The translations under genes and the position numbers were made by a program. Under the pieces are notes generated by a model that saw nothing but the letters and a program-made list of their open reading frames with translations, was not told where the DNA came from and did not search any database. 64,000 nt of DNA from a virus, in IMG/VR virus record IMGVR_UViG_3300044732_000442, positions 1 to 64,000 of that record; one strand, given 5' to 3'. This document shows, piece after piece, positions 32,004-58,185 of the stretch; the first letter of the stretch is position 1, and every line of letters starts with the position of its first letter.

Positions 32004-32627
32004 ATGGTAACAATAGAATTATTAACAGCAATGTGTCCAAAAACAAAACGCTCTATATTAGAGGGTTACGTTGAGCCACTAAACACAGTAGCAGAATACT
32101 ATGAGATGTTTGAAAACCCACGCAGAGTTGCCGGCTTCTTAGCACAGATAGCACATGAGAGTGGTGGTTTTAATGCTGTCATTGAAAACTTAAATTACAG
32201 TGCTAAAGGATTGATGGGTACGTTTAAAAAATATTTCCCCAATGAAGAACTAGCAAAGCAATATGAACGTAAACCAGAAATGATTGCTAATCGTGTTTAT
32301 GCTAATCGTATGAAGAACGGCGATGAGAACAGTGGTGATGGATTCAGATTCAGAGGTCGTGGATTGATTCAATTGACCGGGCGTGACAACTATACACGTT
32401 TTGCAGAAGCATTAGACATGAGTATTGAAGATACCGTAAGATATTTAGAAACACCAAATGGTGCTGTTGCAAGTGCTGGTTGGTTTTGGGATAACAATAA
32501 ATTAAATCAGTTCTGTGACCGCGATGATTTTGTAACACTAACAAAACGTATCAATGGTGGTACTATTGGGTTAGAAGATAGAAAACATCACTATCACTTA
32601 GCATTAGAAAATTTAGGCGCACATTAA
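32004..32627 (+). CDS. glycoside hydrolase family 19 endolysin
   Basis: FLAQIAHESGG, ENLNYS, FRGRGLIQLTGRDNY, TKRINGG..GLEDR. Confidence 0.92.
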   Translation: MVTIELLTAMCPKTKRSILEGYVEPLNTVAEYYEMFENPRRVAGFLAQIAHESGGFNAVIENLNYSAKGLMGTFKKYFPNEELAKQYERKPEMIANRVYANRMKNGDENSGDGFRFRGRGLIQLTGRDNYTRFAEALDMSIEDTVRYLETPNGAVASAGWFWDNNKLNQFCDRDDFVTLTKRINGGTIGLEDRKHHYHLALENLGAH

Positions 32628-50735: not shown

Positions 50736-51959
50736 ATGGACTTAAAAGAACTACATTCATTCAAAATGTCAGATGCAGTGACATTTCACGATAACCTCAA
50801 TCCAAAATTATTTCGTGGTCAGCACTTACAGCCTGAAGTAGAACTACAACTAAAAAATATAGCACAAGATTTCTTACAAGAGATGGGGATACATGATTTA
50901 GATGTACGAGATATCACTATCTCTGGAAGTAATGCAGCCTATAGCTACACAGACCATAGCGACTTAGATTTACATATATTAGTCAATATGAAGGATCTAC
51001 CAGACGATGACATTTACCATGAATTCTTCAAAGCTAAAAAAGATTTATACAACGATTCACATGATATCACTATCAATGGAATTCCAGTAGAATTGTATAT
51101 ACAGGATGCGGCAGAACCTGTAACTAGTTTAGGTGAATATAGTGTTAAAGATAAGAAATGGTTGCGTTTGCCAACTAAACGTAGAGCAAATTTTGACCAA
51201 ACAGCTACTAAAGCAAAATATACAAAACTATTAGATATTATTGATACAGCATTACAATCTAATAAAATAGGTAAAGTTAATAAAATATTAAAAAAGATTA
51301 AGCAATATCGTCAAGCTGGCTTAGATAAAGGTGGAGAGTTTGGACCTGAAAATCTAGCATATAAAGCATTACGTAGCCGTGGATATATTACAAAACTATA
51401 TGATTTAAGAGATAGATTACATAGCAAACATTTGAGTTTAGATAACATGTATGCTAATGTAGATGAAGATTATGATCCAAATGGACCTCCACCTGGTCCA
51501 GAGTTTAAGCCAACAATGCCTGCCGGTACAGTTAAAGTAGATGTAAGTGATGTATATGATTGGTATAAACTAGGTCAACATATTAGCAATCTTGATGGTT
51601 TAGGTAAACATGATTTTGGTCAAGGTCCTCCTAGCACTATTCTTGCGTTTGGCGATGAAGATACTGAACATAAATATATTAAAGATTTAGAAAAAACAGG
51701 ATTGACAACAACGGATATTGATCCAGTTGATATTAATCAGCCTAAAGGTATGAAACGTCAGAAGACTGATCCTACATACAATGTGGGCGAAGCCTCAGGT
51801 TATATACCATCTGAAAAAGAGAAAAAAGACCCACGTTTTAGTACAGCATTAACAGTAGATGTTAAGCCTGACAGCATCAAAAAGAACGCAAAAGCATTCT
51901 ATTGGAATACAAGTAGAGCGGGTATTCCACCAACAGCAAAGCCATCAGGCAAAATCTAA
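50736..51959 (+). CDS. Pol-beta-superfamily nucleotidyltransferase domain plus two appended modules
   Basis: ISGSNAAY...SDLDLHI (GS...DxD), VELYIQD; junctions VDE (51459) and VGE (51783). Confidence 0.7.
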   Translation: MDLKELHSFKMSDAVTFHDNLNPKLFRGQHLQPEVELQLKNIAQDFLQEMGIHDLDVRDITISGSNAAYSYTDHSDLDLHILVNMKDLPDDDIYHEFFKAKKDLYNDSHDITINGIPVELYIQDAAEPVTSLGEYSVKDKKWLRLPTKRRANFDQTATKAKYTKLLDIIDTALQSNKIGKVNKILKKIKQYRQAGLDKGGEFGPENLAYKALRSRGYITKLYDLRDRLHSKHLSLDNMYANVDEDYDPNGPPPGPEFKPTMPAGTVKVDVSDVYDWYKLGQHISNLDGLGKHDFGQGPPSTILAFGDEDTEHKYIKDLEKTGLTTTDIDPVDINQPKGMKRQKTDPTYNVGEASGYIPSEKEKKDPRFSTALTVDVKPDSIKKNAKAFYWNTSRAGIPPTAKPSGKI

Positions 51960-52014
51960 TAAGTTTCCATATTATGGTATTTTGATAAATACACTATTAG
52001 TATGGAAATCCGTT

Positions 52015-52938
52015 ATGAAAATCAAACAAATCACTGAAACTACAACCGCAGGCTCAATAGCTACTGTAAATTCACCATTAGGTGGCACTCAAAGTAGGGG
52101 AAATACTAGCATATATGGTGGCAAAAAAGTAGGAACTCTATTCAAGGGTAAAAAGACTAGTGTCCCATATGCTAATAGCATCAATGAAAGTGCTGAACTT
52201 AGTGAAGCACAACTAGAAGAAGATGATGTTATTGTCGTTCCGGGACAAGGTCGCAAATCAAAAACTGGATTTGTTCCACATGGACAAAGTCGTATAGACC
52301 ATGAAGTTGAGATGGCACGTAGTGATTTATTCAGTGCCGCAAAGAATGCTCAACAAGTCTATTCAATGATTAAAGATGTTAGTGAAGATGAAGGTCTTGA
52401 TGGTTGGGTACAAGAAAAGATTATTAAAGCTAATGACTATCTAAACACAATACGTGAATACTTAGAAGGTAAACAAATTCAAGGTGTGAATGAAGGACCC
52501 GAGTTTGGTTCAAAGTATGCAGAAAAATTAGCACAATATGTTTATAATGTTAGACCTAATCTTAATAGTGAAGATGATGTTTTAAACATAGGATATAAAG
52601 TTGCTGTACAAGATTTAGCCAGTCAAACACGTGCTGTATCGTTGTTTAGCAGAGATCAAGATTTCCCTAGTGACTTTGTAAGTGCTTATAGATTCTTACA
52701 AAAAAGACGAGGTGTAACAGAAAACAACCAAAGAGGTGATTCACTTGTTACTGACTCATTAAAAATAATGCGTGGTGCAGAAGTAAGTGATGCTGTAAGA
52801 GCACTAACGACCGTACTAGGAAATAGAGAATACAATAGCCGTCGTGGTTTTTACAATTTCTATATTAAACAAATGATTGATATGTATAGACAACAAGGTG
52901 TGAATGAAGGTTCTAAGTCACCTAATAAGAAAGCGTAA
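52015..52938 (+). CDS. modular putative internal head protein
   Basis: Start reassigned to MKIKQITE behind late box 51986; QGVNEG twice and RGVTE junctions. Confidence 0.65.
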   Translation: MKIKQITETTTAGSIATVNSPLGGTQSRGNTSIYGGKKVGTLFKGKKTSVPYANSINESAELSEAQLEEDDVIVVPGQGRKSKTGFVPHGQSRIDHEVEMARSDLFSAAKNAQQVYSMIKDVSEDEGLDGWVQEKIIKANDYLNTIREYLEGKQIQGVNEGPEFGSKYAEKLAQYVYNVRPNLNSEDDVLNIGYKVAVQDLASQTRAVSLFSRDQDFPSDFVSAYRFLQKRRGVTENNQRGDSLVTDSLKIMRGAEVSDAVRALTTVLGNREYNSRRGFYNFYIKQMIDMYRQQGVNEGSKSPNKKA

Positions 52939-52939
52939 T

Positions 52940-55741
52940 ATGAGCAATATTCTTAAAGGTATAATAAACGAAACTAGTCCGCATAATTACGATAGTGATT
53001 GGGATTATCAGGATGCTTTAGCACGTAGTGGCAAATCACGTTCTAGCTATCGTTCACAAGAAGATGATACGTCTGATGCTGATATTGCATATTCTAAAAA
53101 GATGTATCAATTGGGTCAACAACAGAAGGCTGCTAAAGAGAAAGCTCAACGTGATAATGACCATGATAGATTAGCAACTGGTACAAATGAAGATGATAGT
53201 AATCAAACTAGAATGAGAATGAATGATTATTACGATTTAGCTGAGGCTCTTCAGGAAAAGCTTAGACAAGCAATTAAGATGGGTAATAACGAACTTGTAC
53301 ATAAATTATCCAAAGAACGTGCTGAATTAGATGCACGTGTTAAAAAATATGGATTAATGCCTGAATCAGAACAATTAGATGAAATCTCTAATGAGAAATT
53401 GGCACAATACAAAACAGCTGCCGCCGCCGACGCAGGCAAAGCTGATAAAGAGGGAGACTTTAAGCGTGGTGATAAACGTTTCAGTGGTATTGTTAAAGCA
53501 ACTAAGAAACAATTTGCAAATGATACAAAGAAATCTGGTATAGGTCAAGGTATTTCAGAAGATAGATTTAACAGTAAACAAGAAGTTATTAACCATTTTG
53601 TTAAAAATGGTAAAAGTGCGGCAGCAGGTGCGGCAGCATGGGAACGTGGTTATAGAGGTTCAAATCCTAACAAACCAATAGAAATAAAAAAGCCACCTCA
53701 AAGAAGTTACCATGATGATTTAGATGATAAACGTTATTCTAATACGTTTGAAAATTTAGGTGATCAACTAAAATCACAATCTCTAGAAGCATTACAACAA
53801 ATCAAACAACAAATTGAACAAAAACGTGCCGACGAATTAGCTCAATGGGAACAAGATTTTAGAAATAATGTTGCTGGCAAAATGAGAAGCCAACCAATAC
53901 GTTCACCGGAAGCAACACCGGTTGCACAACCTGGTGAGAAGCATTCAGTATTAAAAGCTAGATTAGCACAACTCAATAATGCTATACAAAAACAAGAACT
54001 ATTGGACAAGTTAATTGATAAAATTGACCGTAAAGGTTTGTTGACTCCAGCAATGCAGAACGATGCTGATACTAGAATGCATGTTAAGTATGGTGCAAAA
54101 GATAACTATCAATCATTGAATAAAAAGTTAGACAATTCTATTTCAATGTTACAGGATAGATTGTATATACGTAAAAAATCAGGTTTAAAAGAATCGCCTA
54201 AGAGAATTGATTATGATAGTGATACATATGATAATACTAGAATGGGTAGAGAGTATGGCAAGGCTAATCTATTTGTAGATCCGGGGTCAAATGAATTTAA
54301 AAAAGAAATACATCCTGGAGATCCTGAAGGTGAACGTGGTAGACCAAGAAATCTAAAAGGTATTTCAAAAAGGTTACCTGCTGATGCGTTTGGTCGTACT
54401 AGCGGAGTTGTTCCTGATAGTGCAAGACCTAAATCAAAAGAAGATCCTTTTAAAGGAGTAGATGAAGCTGATATGAACCGTAGAGGGTTTTTAGGACAAG
54501 CAGGCAAGGCTGCAGGTGCTGGCGCATTGGCTGCCGCAGGCTTAGGTGGTGCTAGCAATGCTCAAGCATTTAAGGGAACACTTCCTGCTCCTCGTATATC
54601 TGAAGATGAGGCTGAAGCTCAAATTAAAGAATTAAGAAGTAAAGCATATAAAGAGTTAGCAAGTATGATGTGGAATGTATGGCCTAAAATACTAGACACA
54701 ACATTTGGCGCAAATACTCCTCAAGATAAGCCAGCTACACCCGATGAAATTGGTAAAATGTTAGGCTACAGATTAGCTGAATATGCTGATGACTATAGAC
54801 AAAAAGTTAGAGCAATTAAAATAGCAGCCGGAGTAAGAGATCCTCAAAGTTTAAATAAAACAACTGCCGCAATTTATGTTAATGAACAAGAGATGGATGA
54901 GGGTTGGAGTCAAAAGTACAAGAGTAGTATCAACTGTAGTCATCCTAAAGGTTTTAGTCAAAAAGCTCATTGTGCAGGCAAGAAGAAACACAATGAAAGT
55001 ATTGACAATGTTATGGAAATGACATGTCCTGATTGTGGTATGTGTGAAACTCACGTAGACCATGCTAAGTTAGATGAAGCTTGTTGGAAAGGTTATCACA
55101 AAGAAGGTAACAAAAAAATGTTTGGCAAAACATATCCTAACTGTGTAAAGAATACTAACGAAGAACAACTAGATGAAAAATGCTGGGACACACATAAACA
55201 AGTTGGAATGAAAAACAAAGGTGGACGTATGGTCCCTAACTGTGTGCCTAAAGAAAGTGTAGAAGAACAACATTCACATAGTGAAAGTTGTCCGCATTGT
55301 GGTGGCGAGATGGTTAGTGAAGAACTAATGAATGAAAAGAAAGATGCTTGCTACTACAAAGTAAAGAGCCGTTATAAAGTATGGCCAAGTGCTTATGCAT
55401 CTGGTGCGTTAGTTAAGTGCCGCAATAAAGGCGCAAGTAACTGGGGTACAGGCGGAAAGAAAAATGAAAGCTCTATACTAGAAGGTATTGAACAAGCAGA
55501 CGAAAGTTTACATGATTGGTTCAATAAAGAAAAATGGGTTCGCATGGATACTAAAGGAAAGATTAAAGGTCCGTGTGCAAGAGAACCAGGCGAAGGTAAA
55601 CCAAAATGTTTGCCACAAAGTAAAGCACATAGTCTAGGTAAAAAGGGTCGTGCTAGTGCCGCTCAACGTAAGCGTAGAGAAGATCCTAATCCAGAACGTA
55701 GTGGCAAAGCCATTAATGTTGATACAAAAAAGAAAGATTAA
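52940..55741 (+). CDS. large modular putative head-cargo polyprotein with internal Tat-like signal and Cys-rich mini-modules
   Basis: Start MSNILKGIINE; more than ten LDE/VDE/LKE/MDE-type junctions; MNRRGFL at 54473. Confidence 0.65.
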   Translation: MSNILKGIINETSPHNYDSDWDYQDALARSGKSRSSYRSQEDDTSDADIAYSKKMYQLGQQQKAAKEKAQRDNDHDRLATGTNEDDSNQTRMRMNDYYDLAEALQEKLRQAIKMGNNELVHKLSKERAELDARVKKYGLMPESEQLDEISNEKLAQYKTAAAADAGKADKEGDFKRGDKRFSGIVKATKKQFANDTKKSGIGQGISEDRFNSKQEVINHFVKNGKSAAAGAAAWERGYRGSNPNKPIEIKKPPQRSYHDDLDDKRYSNTFENLGDQLKSQSLEALQQIKQQIEQKRADELAQWEQDFRNNVAGKMRSQPIRSPEATPVAQPGEKHSVLKARLAQLNNAIQKQELLDKLIDKIDRKGLLTPAMQNDADTRMHVKYGAKDNYQSLNKKLDNSISMLQDRLYIRKKSGLKESPKRIDYDSDTYDNTRMGREYGKANLFVDPGSNEFKKEIHPGDPEGERGRPRNLKGISKRLPADAFGRTSGVVPDSARPKSKEDPFKGVDEADMNRRGFLGQAGKAAGAGALAAAGLGGASNAQAFKGTLPAPRISEDEAEAQIKELRSKAYKELASMMWNVWPKILDTTFGANTPQDKPATPDEIGKMLGYRLAEYADDYRQKVRAIKIAAGVRDPQSLNKTTAAIYVNEQEMDEGWSQKYKSSINCSHPKGFSQKAHCAGKKKHNESIDNVMEMTCPDCGMCETHVDHAKLDEACWKGYHKEGNKKMFGKTYPNCVKNTNEEQLDEKCWDTHKQVGMKNKGGRMVPNCVPKESVEEQHSHSESCPHCGGEMVSEELMNEKKDACYYKVKSRYKVWPSAYASGALVKCRNKGASNWGTGGKKNESSILEGIEQADESLHDWFNKEKWVRMDTKGKIKGPCAREPGEGKPKCLPQSKAHSLGKKGRASAAQRKRREDPNPERSGKAINVDTKKKD

Positions 55742-55750
55742 AGAGTAATT

Positions 55751-56191
55751 ATGTTGTCAGACAATCTAAAAGTATTACTAGCAAGCACACAAAGTTTTGC
55801 TATCAAAACACAAAACTTTCATTGGAACGTAGAGGGAAGTAACTTTCCACAATATCACGAATTCTTTAATACATTGTACGAAGATGTAAGTGCTACGATT
55901 GATCCTATTGCTGAATATATAAGAATACTAGGTCACTATACTCCTGGCAGTCTAACACGTTATGCTGAACTAAGTATCATACAAGACCAAATAAAGATTC
56001 CACGTGCTGAATTAATGTTTGTTGAATCATTACAAGATTGTGAAACAATGCTTCAGTTAGTAACAGCAATGTTTGATGAGGCAGCTGGTGAGAATCAACA
56101 TGGTATTGAAAACTATATGGCTGAACTACAAGACTTGTATGGTAAGAAAGCATGGTTCATTCGTTCTATATTAAAAAGAGAACGTGAATGA
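55751..56191 (+). CDS. dps: Dps ferritin-like DNA protection protein
   Basis: FHWNVEGSNF..YHEFF..LYE......D.IAE.IR. Confidence 0.92.
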   Translation: MLSDNLKVLLASTQSFAIKTQNFHWNVEGSNFPQYHEFFNTLYEDVSATIDPIAEYIRILGHYTPGSLTRYAELSIIQDQIKIPRAELMFVESLQDCETMLQLVTAMFDEAAGENQHGIENYMAELQDLYGKKAWFIRSILKRERE

Positions 56192-57066
56192 GAGCAACAG
56201 AGTTTATTACCGAACAAGCAAATCCTAAAGTAGATTTGACTCCAAATTATCCTAACTATCAAGTGTTAGTGGGTGAGTTTGTCGGTATGAAAAAAAACAG
56301 AGCAAGATTTTTAATTGTAGCCTCTGAACTTAAACCAGGTGTGCGAGAGACTGATAAAATTTTTAGAGCTAGAACTACTAATACACCTATCAGTATTGAG
56401 ATTGGTAGGGTAAAAAATCGTAATGTAGTAGATGAAGATTTATCACGTAGAGGCTTCTTAGGTGGTTTAGCTGGTATGGCTGCACTAGGTACTAGAGATA
56501 CAAAACCTACTGTTAATAAAGATACACCAACGGCACCACAAAAAGAACCTACTGTAACTACATTGAGTAACAATCCTCAAATTGAGAGTTTATTACATAA
56601 AGCCGCTGTAGCTGCCGGTATAGTTGGTATTGAATTAGCACAGTTTATGGCTCAAACTAAACATGAATCCTGGAATTTTAGTAGACTAAAAGAAAAGGGT
56701 GTAGGTCAAGGCTATTTTGCTAAAAAGTATGACCGTCAATATGCACCACGTACTGCTAAGATATTGGGTAATAAGCAGATAGGTGATGGAGAAAAATATC
56801 ATGGTCGTGGATTTATTCAATTGACCGGTCGTGATAACTATCGTATGGCTAGTCAAAGTTTAGGTATTGATTTATTAAATGATCCTGATTTAGCAGAACG
56901 ACCAGATGTTGCAGCCAAGATTGCTATATGGTATTGGAAGACACGTGTTAAACCCTATATAAATAACTTCAACGATACGAAGGCAGTAACACAAAAGATT
57001 AATCCAGCACTACGTGGATTACAAGATAGACATGCAAAGTTTATTGACTACAAAAACATATTATAA
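56188..57066 (+). CDS. GH19 muramidase/chitinase-like protein with N-terminal module and internal Tat-like signal
   Basis: MRATEFITE start; SRRGFL at 56443; FMAQTKHES, YHGRGFIQLTGRDNY, TQKINP...GLQDR. Confidence 0.85.
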   Translation: MRATEFITEQANPKVDLTPNYPNYQVLVGEFVGMKKNRARFLIVASELKPGVRETDKIFRARTTNTPISIEIGRVKNRNVVDEDLSRRGFLGGLAGMAALGTRDTKPTVNKDTPTAPQKEPTVTTLSNNPQIESLLHKAAVAAGIVGIELAQFMAQTKHESWNFSRLKEKGVGQGYFAKKYDRQYAPRTAKILGNKQIGDGEKYHGRGFIQLTGRDNYRMASQSLGIDLLNDPDLAERPDVAAKIAIWYWKTRVKPYINNFNDTKAVTQKINPALRGLQDRHAKFIDYKNIL

Positions 57067-57074
57067 AGAGAACC

Positions 57075-57512
57075 ATGAAGAAAATAATAACAATCATACT
57101 ATTAGCAATATCTACTATTGCATTTGCACAAAAACAAAAGCCAATGAATGTATATGATTTTACAATCACTAGAGTTATTGATGGAGATACAGTAGCATTT
57201 CAAGCAACATTTTTACCCCCACCATTAAAGCAAGAATTAAGTATTCGTGTGTTTGGTGTTGACACACCTGAAAAGGGTCATAGAGCAATGTGCCCCAGTG
57301 AAGCACAGCGTGGCGAGGCTGCTTCGGCCTTCACAAAAAATGCCATAGCTAAAGCACAGAAACGTCAAGTAGCTATAGCTGATTGGGATAAGTATGGTGG
57401 ACGTGTATTGGGTGATATATTACTTGATGGACAAAGTTTAAGAATGATGTTAATACAGAATGGATTTGCAAGAGAATACTACGGAGAAGCTAAAACTTCT
57501 TGGTGCAACTAA
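57075..57512 (+). CDS. secreted thermonuclease (SNase family)
   Basis: Sec signal MKKIITIILLAISTIAFA; RVIDGDT, IRVFGVDTPE, DKYGGRVLG. Confidence 0.9.
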   Translation: MKKIITIILLAISTIAFAQKQKPMNVYDFTITRVIDGDTVAFQATFLPPPLKQELSIRVFGVDTPEKGHRAMCPSEAQRGEAASAFTKNAIAKAQKRQVAIADWDKYGGRVLGDILLDGQSLRMMLIQNGFAREYYGEAKTSWCN

Positions 57513-57609: not shown

Positions 57610-58185
57610 ATGAGAGCAATAGAACTATACGAATCGGCCGCAAGTGAACTAGCTAAGAAACTTCCTAGCTTAGAGAAACACGACTATAATACCATTGATA
57701 AGCTAATGAAAAACATAGCAAAGAAACATCGTATAACCGGTGATGCATTGCATGATTTGTTTGTTAGAAAATATCATAAGACTCCAGACAGTTGGATTAA
57801 AGATAAACTAGATGAGAGTGAACAAGAAGATTTGAATAACAATCCTATTGTACAGAAGTTTCTTGCTTGGACAAGTAAGAAGTTGAATTTAGAAAATACT
57901 CCAAAGATAGAGTTTAGTTATGATAGTGATGAAGCACAAGAAGGTCATCATACTGGTAGACACAATCCAGAGACGGGTGAAGTATGGGTTTATTGTGCTA
58001 ATAGAAATCTAGTAGATATATTACGTACTGTGTTCCATGAATTAACTCATGTACGCCAGGGTGAATTAAATATGATTAAGCCGGGTGATAGTTATCCAGG
58101 TAGTCCAATAGAAGCAGAAGCGGATGTAATGGCTGGCAAATATATTAAAATATTTGGTAAAGCACATCCAGAAATATTTCAATAA
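57610..58185 (+). CDS. N-terminal module + zincin-like metallopeptidase domain
   Basis: Start reassigned to MRAIELYE; KLDE junction; HELTH (HExxH) and downstream PIEAEAD. Confidence 0.7.
   Translation: MRAIELYESAASELAKKLPSLEKHDYNTIDKLMKNIAKKHRITGDALHDLFVRKYHKTPDSWIKDKLDESEQEDLNNNPIVQKFLAWTSKKLNLENTPKIEFSYDSDEAQEGHHTGRHNPETGEVWVYCANRNLVDILRTVFHELTHVRQGELNMIKPGDSYPGSPIEAEADVMAGKYIKIFGKAHPEIFQ

Follow-up and report, generated by a model that had tools for sequence, protein, structure and literature searches.

The 64,000-nucleotide stretch analysed here, positions 1 to 64,000 of the IMG/VR virus record IMGVR_UViG_3300044732_000442 (hereafter the window, to which all positions refer), carries a gene for a GH19 muramidase in which a twin-arginine translocation (Tat)-type signal lies in the interior of the protein, directly behind a V-D-E joint. 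Judging from its conservation and its place in related proteins, this segment very probably functions in export as the signal of the GH19 cassette, and it stands at a cassette joint. The gene is the open reading frame (ORF) 56188..57066 (+), whose numbering is used for the 292-amino-acid (aa) protein. From the N-terminus onwards, this protein consists of the tag MRATEFITE, a module of ~70 residues, the sequence VVDE/DLSRRGFLGGLAGMAALG (a slash marks a joint or cleavage point), a Pro/Thr/Lys linker and an intact GH19 domain, a layout whose main parts a preliminary description of this DNA had already given and that our analysis confirmed. Positions 56428-56490 encode V81-G101 (VDEDLSRRGFLGGLAGMAALG), and the linker sequence directly after the signal segment is TRDTKPTVNKDTPTAPQKEPTVTT. 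As for function, we favor a reading in which the protein is unmasked by a protease in the phage head and delivered with the virion, and we give this reading a probability of roughly 0.4. The window belongs to a 116-kb IMG/VR fragment (~34% complete) that comes from an uncultured giant myovirus whose tail sheath is 43-47% identical to the tail sheaths of PA5oct and Atu_ph07.

The segment agrees with the twin-arginine consensus [ST]-R-R-x-F-L-[K/G], reading S86-R-R-G-F-L-G, and its twin arginines R87 and R88 are encoded at 56446-56451. Conservation of RRxFL in homologues had been set as a test beforehand, and the motif passed it: R87, R88, G89, F90 and L91 are invariant among 44 homologues that are 64-94% identical overall. 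The linker that follows differs in both length and sequence from homologue to homologue. When all six frames of the window were examined (ORFs of at least 60 aa), the pattern RRxF[LIVMK] was found just twice, and both copies are internal, lie no more than 6 residues after V-D-E and run into a Gly/Ala-rich uncharged stretch; we therefore do not take the motif for a chance occurrence. The hydrophobic region (h-region) comprises 14 residues in the GH19 protein of the window and 14-17 across the leaders, and the start of the linker, TRD, puts a basic residue in the c-region. Three kinds of leader are present in the homologues: about half of the 44 end the signal in AQA/K or ANA/K, the clade of the window protein has a 14-residue h-region followed by TRDTKP, and a third kind has a longer h-region. 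The curated Tat model TIGR01409 (TAT_signal_seq; cut-off 16.7 bits) is matched by 37 of the 44 at E up to 10, and one of them (L013) scores 19.7 bits, above the cut-off. The location of the motif is not the N-terminal one of a Tat signal, as RR occupies residues 87-88 of 292 and no internal start codon precedes it. All Tat-like motifs of the window record and of the complete relative G001 are internal and come after a joint; the sole Tat-like motif in the 352 kb of G001 is the internal signal of its GH19 protein.

The structural context of the segment was examined with AlphaFold2, run with the 44 homologues. A small alpha/beta domain (residues 11-80) and the GH19 fold (residues 130-292) were both predicted with confidence, while residues 1-10 and 82-120 had very low confidence, which places the RR segment in a predicted flexible joint between two folded domains; the tag and the linker (residues 102-129) are modelled as disordered. 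The GH19 domain matches Pfam PF00182 with an e-value of 1.4e-16 (61.4 bits, gathering cut-off 25.5) and the endolysin family phrog_181 with 2e-39, and the closest solved structures are the phage GH19 enzymes 7R6S and 4OK7. E160 and E169, which we take to be the catalytic acidic pair of phage GH19 enzymes, are invariant among the 44 homologues. The ~70-aa module in front of the joint exists by itself in relatives as a tagged 82-aa protein (e.g., L018). Its fold found no significant match with Foldseek against viral models (E of at least 0.14) or with VIA-align against 48,161 PDB chains (Z no higher than 4.2), the top structures in the latter search being SH3-, Tudor- and Sm-like small barrels, none of them significant; the ESM Atlas gave no usable feature match for the module.

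Comparison with the relatives indicates that the V-D-E joint is a true cassette boundary. A [VI]xE tripeptide stands ahead of RRGF in 41 of the 44 homologues, in the form [VI]xE-D[LI][ST]. Furthermore, syntenic genes in relatives end exactly at the joint (...VKNRTVV[GS], then stop), and in one complete relative without the RR-bearing GH19 the syntenic gene ends in ...VKNRTVVG. Other homologues have additional N-terminal modules that are linked via SIVE/Q, YLEE/Q or EVTE/Q; the proteins are modular, with up to many modules in a chain. At the nucleotide level, the 10-mer GTAGATGAAG, which covers V-D-E and the first base of the next codon, has four in-frame copies in the window versus 0.15 expected, and it may mark recombination joints between cassettes.

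The same arrangement extends over a much wider family. An exhaustive phmmer search with residues 81-292 as the query was run against 1.84 billion representatives, and the top 150 GH19 representatives, which are 44-83% identical to the query and 121 to 1,759 residues long, were analysed. GH19 is almost always C-terminal in these proteins and lies near the N-terminus in a few chains, and the tag MRAxEF[ILV]xE or a close variant of it heads 121 of the 150. A hydrophobic core (median 15 residues) is present in 134 of 142, ~114 residues ahead of the GRGxIQ motif, and [LIVMF]xE occurs no more than 13 residues upstream of the core in 127 of these 134, compared with 16% of equivalent windows taken from other parts of these proteins. 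At P3 of the joint, 76 have L, 29 have V and 20 have I. Leaders of the RR type form a minority within this more general class of hydrophobic leaders: they were found in 17 or 18 of the 150, and a non-RR leader, e.g., EGWKD-WVAGAALGAAALG or ...LDE-GWKD-WVAGAALGAAALAPQTA, occupies the same place in ~118 of the 142. On a tree of the GH19 domain, the RR label needs 10 changes by parsimony, at least 5 of which are forced by well-supported branches; thus, RR and non-RR leaders have repeatedly been swapped in front of closely related enzymes, as is expected of interchangeable export signals. Two architectures in the family deserve mention. In minimal forms, e.g., one of 214 aa, the tag abuts the signal directly (MKAEEFISE/IDRRGFLGALG...AQA/K), and a 940-aa chain (P0243) carries two leaders, with LysM and GH19, in that order, behind the second one, an arrangement that looks awkward for a protein that stays uncut.

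The tag itself resembles a capsid-targeting sequence. MRATEFITE retains the F-I-x-E core of the capsid-targeting sequence (CTS) of phage T4, MKTYQEFIAE (PMC8442874). In T4, this 10-residue sequence is enough for packaging and is removed after its Glu (PMC9026906, PMC8442874, PMC3012670), and relatives of the T4 head protease gp21 cleave after Glu (PMC9026906). The same tag is found on three ORFs of the window record (the GH19 gene and ORFs 15930 and 57610) and on eight proteins of G001, so that a ~10-residue N-terminal tag ending in [LI]-x-E is common to diverse proteins. A gp21-type prohead protease (PF03420) is encoded in all three complete relatives (349-525 kb; E ~1e-27 to 1e-28), and in G001, the only relative examined in detail, its gene lies inside a T4-like portal-protease-scaffold-capsid module. 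Searches of the tag-bearing neighbors against Pfam gave only DUF6321 (one protein) and Amidoligase_2 (the 792-aa protein of one relative) above the cut-off, and a tblastn comparison of two of the tag-bearing ORFs of the window with cultured phages gave no annotated virion homologues. The 792-aa protein (MRALDFILEN..., G001 L013:3621-5996) contains Amidoligase_2 (PF12224, 7e-10), a domain that is typical of predicted injected conflict proteins. The tagged protein encoded at 57610-58185 (+) in the window, MRAIELYES..., has no Pfam match and contains the HExxH motif FHELTH; it may be a peptidase that acts in processing, as has been proposed for the polyvalent proteins considered below.

The internal signal is not confined to GH19 proteins. 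The second RRxF[LIVMK] copy of the window lies within a 945-aa protein whose internal signal passes TIGR01409 (17.4 versus 16.7 bits), and its counterparts in relatives read LKE/ADMNRRGFL, VDE/ADMSRRGFL, TDE/AIDRRGFLKG and VDE/ADMNRRGFLKG. The polyproteins of relatives hold further internal RR signals after LKE, VDE or TDE with differing passengers, one of these signals without a Met, and at least four different passenger modules show this design. In the 945-aa ORF, the sequence AAAGGAG lies 14 nt 5' of an internal ATG (54473) that precedes NRRGFL (positions 54452-54475), so an internal start is conceivable there, unlike in the GH19 gene. The C-terminal part of this ORF (54896-55741) consists of repeated Cys-rich modules that match phrog_727 in four stretches; such modules are also found in many marine cyanomyoviruses, e.g., P-SSM2, S-CAM22 and S-SM2.

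From these data we infer a route of packaging, cleavage, ejection and Tat-dependent export, together with its benefit to the phage, as follows. A small tagged phage protein would have received the "signal + linker + GH19" cassette at its C-terminus. The precursor would be drawn into the prohead via the MRAxEFIxE tag, as the T4 internal proteins are via MKTYQEFIAE, and a gp21-type head protease would then cleave after I-T-E, taking the tag off, and after V-D-E, thereby turning DLSRRGFL... into a new N-terminus. After entering the next host together with the DNA, the processed enzyme would be exported by the host Tat translocase (provided that the host has a Tat system) and would cut peptidoglycan in the periplasm, either anchored or released at A-L-G/T or, in many homologues, at AQA/K. 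This route, which the preliminary description had proposed in outline, fits the constant tag, the near-universal [LIV]xE before both leader types, the exchangeable upstream modules, the two-leader chain and the protease gene in relatives; moreover, since an ejected protein is already finished, the route gives a reason for the use of a post-translational pathway. A more general form of it can be put forward tentatively: giant T4-type phages may fill their capsids with effector modules that are strung together through head-protease sites, cleavage in the head may expose Sec- or Tat-type signals masked in the precursor, and host translocases may export the products to the periplasm after ejection. 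The GH19 cassette, accompanied by LysM in some chains, would then be the commonest passenger, with hundreds of clusters at 50% identity.

Several observations weigh against protease unmasking in the head and delivery with the virion. Three of the 44 homologues have I-A-D at the joint, and Asp at P1 blocks processing in T4 (PMC9026906). PF03420 was not found in the window's own 116-kb record, an absence that is uninformative because the record is only ~34% complete. The tag is also absent in the cultured relatives with virion proteomes (PA5oct, Atu_ph07, GAP32, SCTP-2 and 2.275.O): the tag pattern ATG-N9-GAN-TTY-NTN-NNN-GAR had chance-level matches in the first four and none in Vibrio phage 2.275.O, and no match reads M[RK]A. 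As regards the signal, the window copy scores 8.2-9.4 bits at TIGR01409, below the cut-off, so that the Tat assignment of the preliminary description holds by the invariant RRGF and by the homologue and the neighboring copy that pass the model, and falls short for this copy by score. The window copy is also without AxA and has a permissive A-L-G/T instead; the earlier remark that no clear AxA follows is thus right for this protein and does not carry over to the roughly half of its homologues that have such a site. In the minimal forms, where the signal is near the N-terminus, export in the producing cell could compete with packaging, and a periplasmic muramidase would bring no obvious advantage after DNA entry. 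Finally, an RR signal of the FecR type, ~80 residues in, can work uncut (PMC12036975). Overall, the interpretation given in the preliminary description is partly supported.

The case of FecR leads to the first alternative. In Escherichia coli FecR, a functional RR at residues 79-80 follows a folded cytoplasmic domain, and the protein is inserted by Tat without unmasking (PMC12036975); a 2026 review of Tat treats FecR as the type example of separate "class V" substrates (PMC13673990). This refutes the premise of the preliminary description that Tat signals are functional only close to the N-terminus, and cleavage is therefore not logically required. The full-length GH19 protein might accordingly be engaged by Tat in the infected cell through its internal RR, with the tag and the 70-aa module staying in the cytoplasm and the folded GH19 domain reaching the periplasm, anchored or released (AQA/K), where it would act as a holin-independent accessory lysin. 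The geometry of R87/R88 is nearly that of FecR, the predicted folded domain followed by a disordered signal region meets the same description, many homologues offer AQA/K, and the adjoining gene encodes a periplasm-directed nuclease. We nevertheless regard this explanation as rather unlikely, because it leaves unexplained the [LIV]xE upstream of the leader in 127 of 134 representatives, the T4-CTS-like tag that 121 of 150 retain at distances of up to 1,500 residues, and the upstream modules that can be exchanged or be absent. An h-region of 14-17 residues is also short for a permanent anchor, the two-leader chain would be odd, and the polyproteins with RR at 650-770 would require very large cytoplasmic parts.

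A second alternative dispenses with Tat. The leader could be a membrane-inserting segment or an anchor resembling those of signal-arrest-release (SAR) endolysins, with the RR pair as a mere positive flanking charge; during ejection it could enter the membrane from the periplasmic side and keep GH19 at the site of entry, or it could act as a weak signal-anchor that is let go on depolarisation. The prevalence of the non-RR leader (EGWKD-WVAGAALGAAALG type) at the same place in the family speaks for this possibility, as does the Gly/Ala-rich composition, which resembles that of SAR domains. In addition, GH19 domains of the same clade occur in cultured phages as parts of very long proteins (PhiEaH1, 2,222 aa; Va2, 1,064 aa) that we assume to be virion proteins. 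Against it, the complete [ST]RRxFL[GK] consensus is retained in the RR variants, which also pass the curated Tat model, and a flanking charge needs neither; a median core length of 15 residues does not suffice for a stable membrane-spanning helix; and the glycine-zipper families of Pfam gave no match in ten leader-bearing representatives. We consider such an anchor improbable.

It is very unlikely that the signal is an evolutionary relic, i.e., that the cassette came from a gene whose Tat signal was N-terminal and that the signal has since lost its function. The copy in the 945-aa protein does keep an initiator Met (VDEAD-M-NRRGFL), and the sub-threshold score and missing AxA of the window copy would suit decay; however, RRGF is invariant where the adjoining linker drifts, the design is repeated with at least four passenger modules, and leaders have been exchanged repeatedly, not lost. 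An internal translation start that would make the signal N-terminal is hardly credible, being suggested only for the 945-aa gene with its ATG directly before NRRGFL and AAAGGAG upstream, whereas in the GH19 gene the codons between M34 and M97 include neither ATG nor GTG nor TTG (in keeping with the earlier statement that no Met lies just before the RR), none of the homologues has a Met before RR, and the AIDRRGFLKG of a relative (L030) lacks one as well.

The coordinates of these features and of two other genes are collected in Table 1. Elsewhere in the window there is a plain GH19 protein that has neither tag nor signal and sits between two large tail-fibre-like genes; it is probably the ordinary endolysin or a tail-associated lysin. 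Given this separate tag-less enzyme, the RR-bearing GH19 is a second, accessory one. Directly 3' of the RR-bearing gene lies the gene for a staphylococcal nuclease homologue with a classical Sec signal (AFA/QKQ), which, by its domain and signal, is a phage-encoded periplasmic nuclease; its signal is at the true N-terminus, in contrast to the internal Tat-like motifs. Relatives have at this position either the nuclease gene or a gene for a 270-aa secreted protein. On the 5' side, a Dps/ferritin-like gene (55751-56191 (+); PF00210, 9e-17) overlaps the start of the GH19 gene through ATGA, which suggests translational coupling. The T4 late-promoter word TATAAATA has 5 copies in the window versus 12 expected, none of them ahead of the GH19 gene.

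Table 1 Positions of the parts of the GH19 protein and of related features in the window (pLDDT, predicted local distance difference test score of the AlphaFold2 (AF2) model).
Feature	Position	Strand or frame	Basis
N-terminal tag MRATEFITE, capsid-targeting-sequence-like, ending in I-T-E	56188..56214	+	sequence; AF2 pLDDT ~40
Small conserved alpha/beta module with "PNYPNY", residues 10-80	56215..56427	+	AF2 pLDDT 77-92
V-D-E joint, candidate T4-type head protease cleavage site	56428..56436	+	homologue conservation, gene ends in relatives
DLSRRGFLGGLAGMAALG: Tat-type n-region, then 14-residue Gly/Ala-rich h-region	56437..56490	+	invariant residues, TIGR01409
Pro/Thr/Lys-rich linker, residues 102-129, starting with TRD	56491..56574	+	AF2 pLDDT 27-41
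GH19 muramidase domain, residues 130-292, plus stop codon	56575..57066	+	PF00182, phrog_181, AF2 pLDDT ~85-95
Second internal Tat-type signal, VDE-AD-MNRRGFLGQAGKAAGAGALAAAGLGGASNAQA/F	54458..54568	+	in 945-aa ORF 52904..55741; TIGR01409 17.4 bits
Copies of GTAGATGAAG	42034, 51459, 54458, 56428	in frame	3 of 4 in modular genes 50736-57066
Plain 207-aa GH19, no tag, no signal	32004..32627	+	93% identical to the copy in 5 of 5 relatives examined
Staphylococcal-nuclease-like protein, ordinary N-terminal Sec-type signal MKKIITIILLAISTIAFA/QKQ	57075..57512	+	PF00565 1.2e-11

The single elements of this design, namely the T4 CTS with gp21, Tat signals and polyvalent proteins with lysozyme domains, are known, while their combination was not found described; in the literature searched, we found no description of a Tat-dependent endolysin or of ejected phage proteins with signal peptides. 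If the protein is indeed cut and then exported, phage-delivered proteins would act in the periplasm too, beyond the cytoplasm, which would give injected phage effectors one more compartment, and proteolysis in the capsid would serve to arm an export signal. The tagged modular proteins of uncultured giant phages, a very large family without annotation, would be explained as well, and the system would provide a portable 9-10-residue tag for loading cargo into giant-phage capsids as well as a natural set of masked signal peptides. If the protein instead works uncut in the manner of FecR, it would be, as far as the literature was searched, the first case of an internal Tat signal in a virus and of a phage lysin that is routed through Tat.

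[quoted passage not shown] They differ in that here unrelated modules are strung in one chain and the passenger has its own export signal after the joint; to our knowledge, no T4 internal protein is re-exported. Endolysins with a SAR domain or a signal peptide (P1 Lyz, phage 21 R and Lys44) have N-terminal leaders and are Sec-dependent. Like them, the GH19 protein is a muralytic enzyme with a weakly hydrophobic, Gly/Ala-rich leader that would reach the periplasm without a holin hole. Unlike theirs, the leader is internal and of the Tat type, and an ordinary endolysin is encoded separately by the phage; the composition fits a SAR domain, but the segment starts at residue 89 and has 14 residues, whereas a SAR domain lies at the extreme N-terminus. 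The polyvalent proteins of phages and conjugative elements combine unrelated domains, often including lysozyme, and are predicted to be packaged, processed and delivered with DNA (Iyer et al. 2017, PMC5512222). The window protein likewise has two unrelated domains, one of them a lysozyme. For the polyvalent proteins, zincin-like peptidase domains were proposed for processing, not [LIV]xE head-protease joints, neither an MRAxEFIxE tag nor internal signal peptides are described, and neither "signal peptide" nor "transmembrane" is a term in the text of that paper (PMC5512222). The GH19 chain has no zincin processing domain, and the HExxH protein is encoded two genes downstream. With FecR, finally, the protein shares an RR pair ~80 residues in (79-80 versus 87-88) after a small folded domain (residues 11-80 in the AlphaFold2 model), as in class V substrates, and a C-terminal domain bound for the periplasm. 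The FecR signal is the uncleaved anchor of a cellular regulator, whereas the GH19 protein has a short h-region, AxA is present in about half of its homologues, and the signal is combined with an acidic [LIV]xE joint, a CTS-like tag and an exchangeable upstream part.

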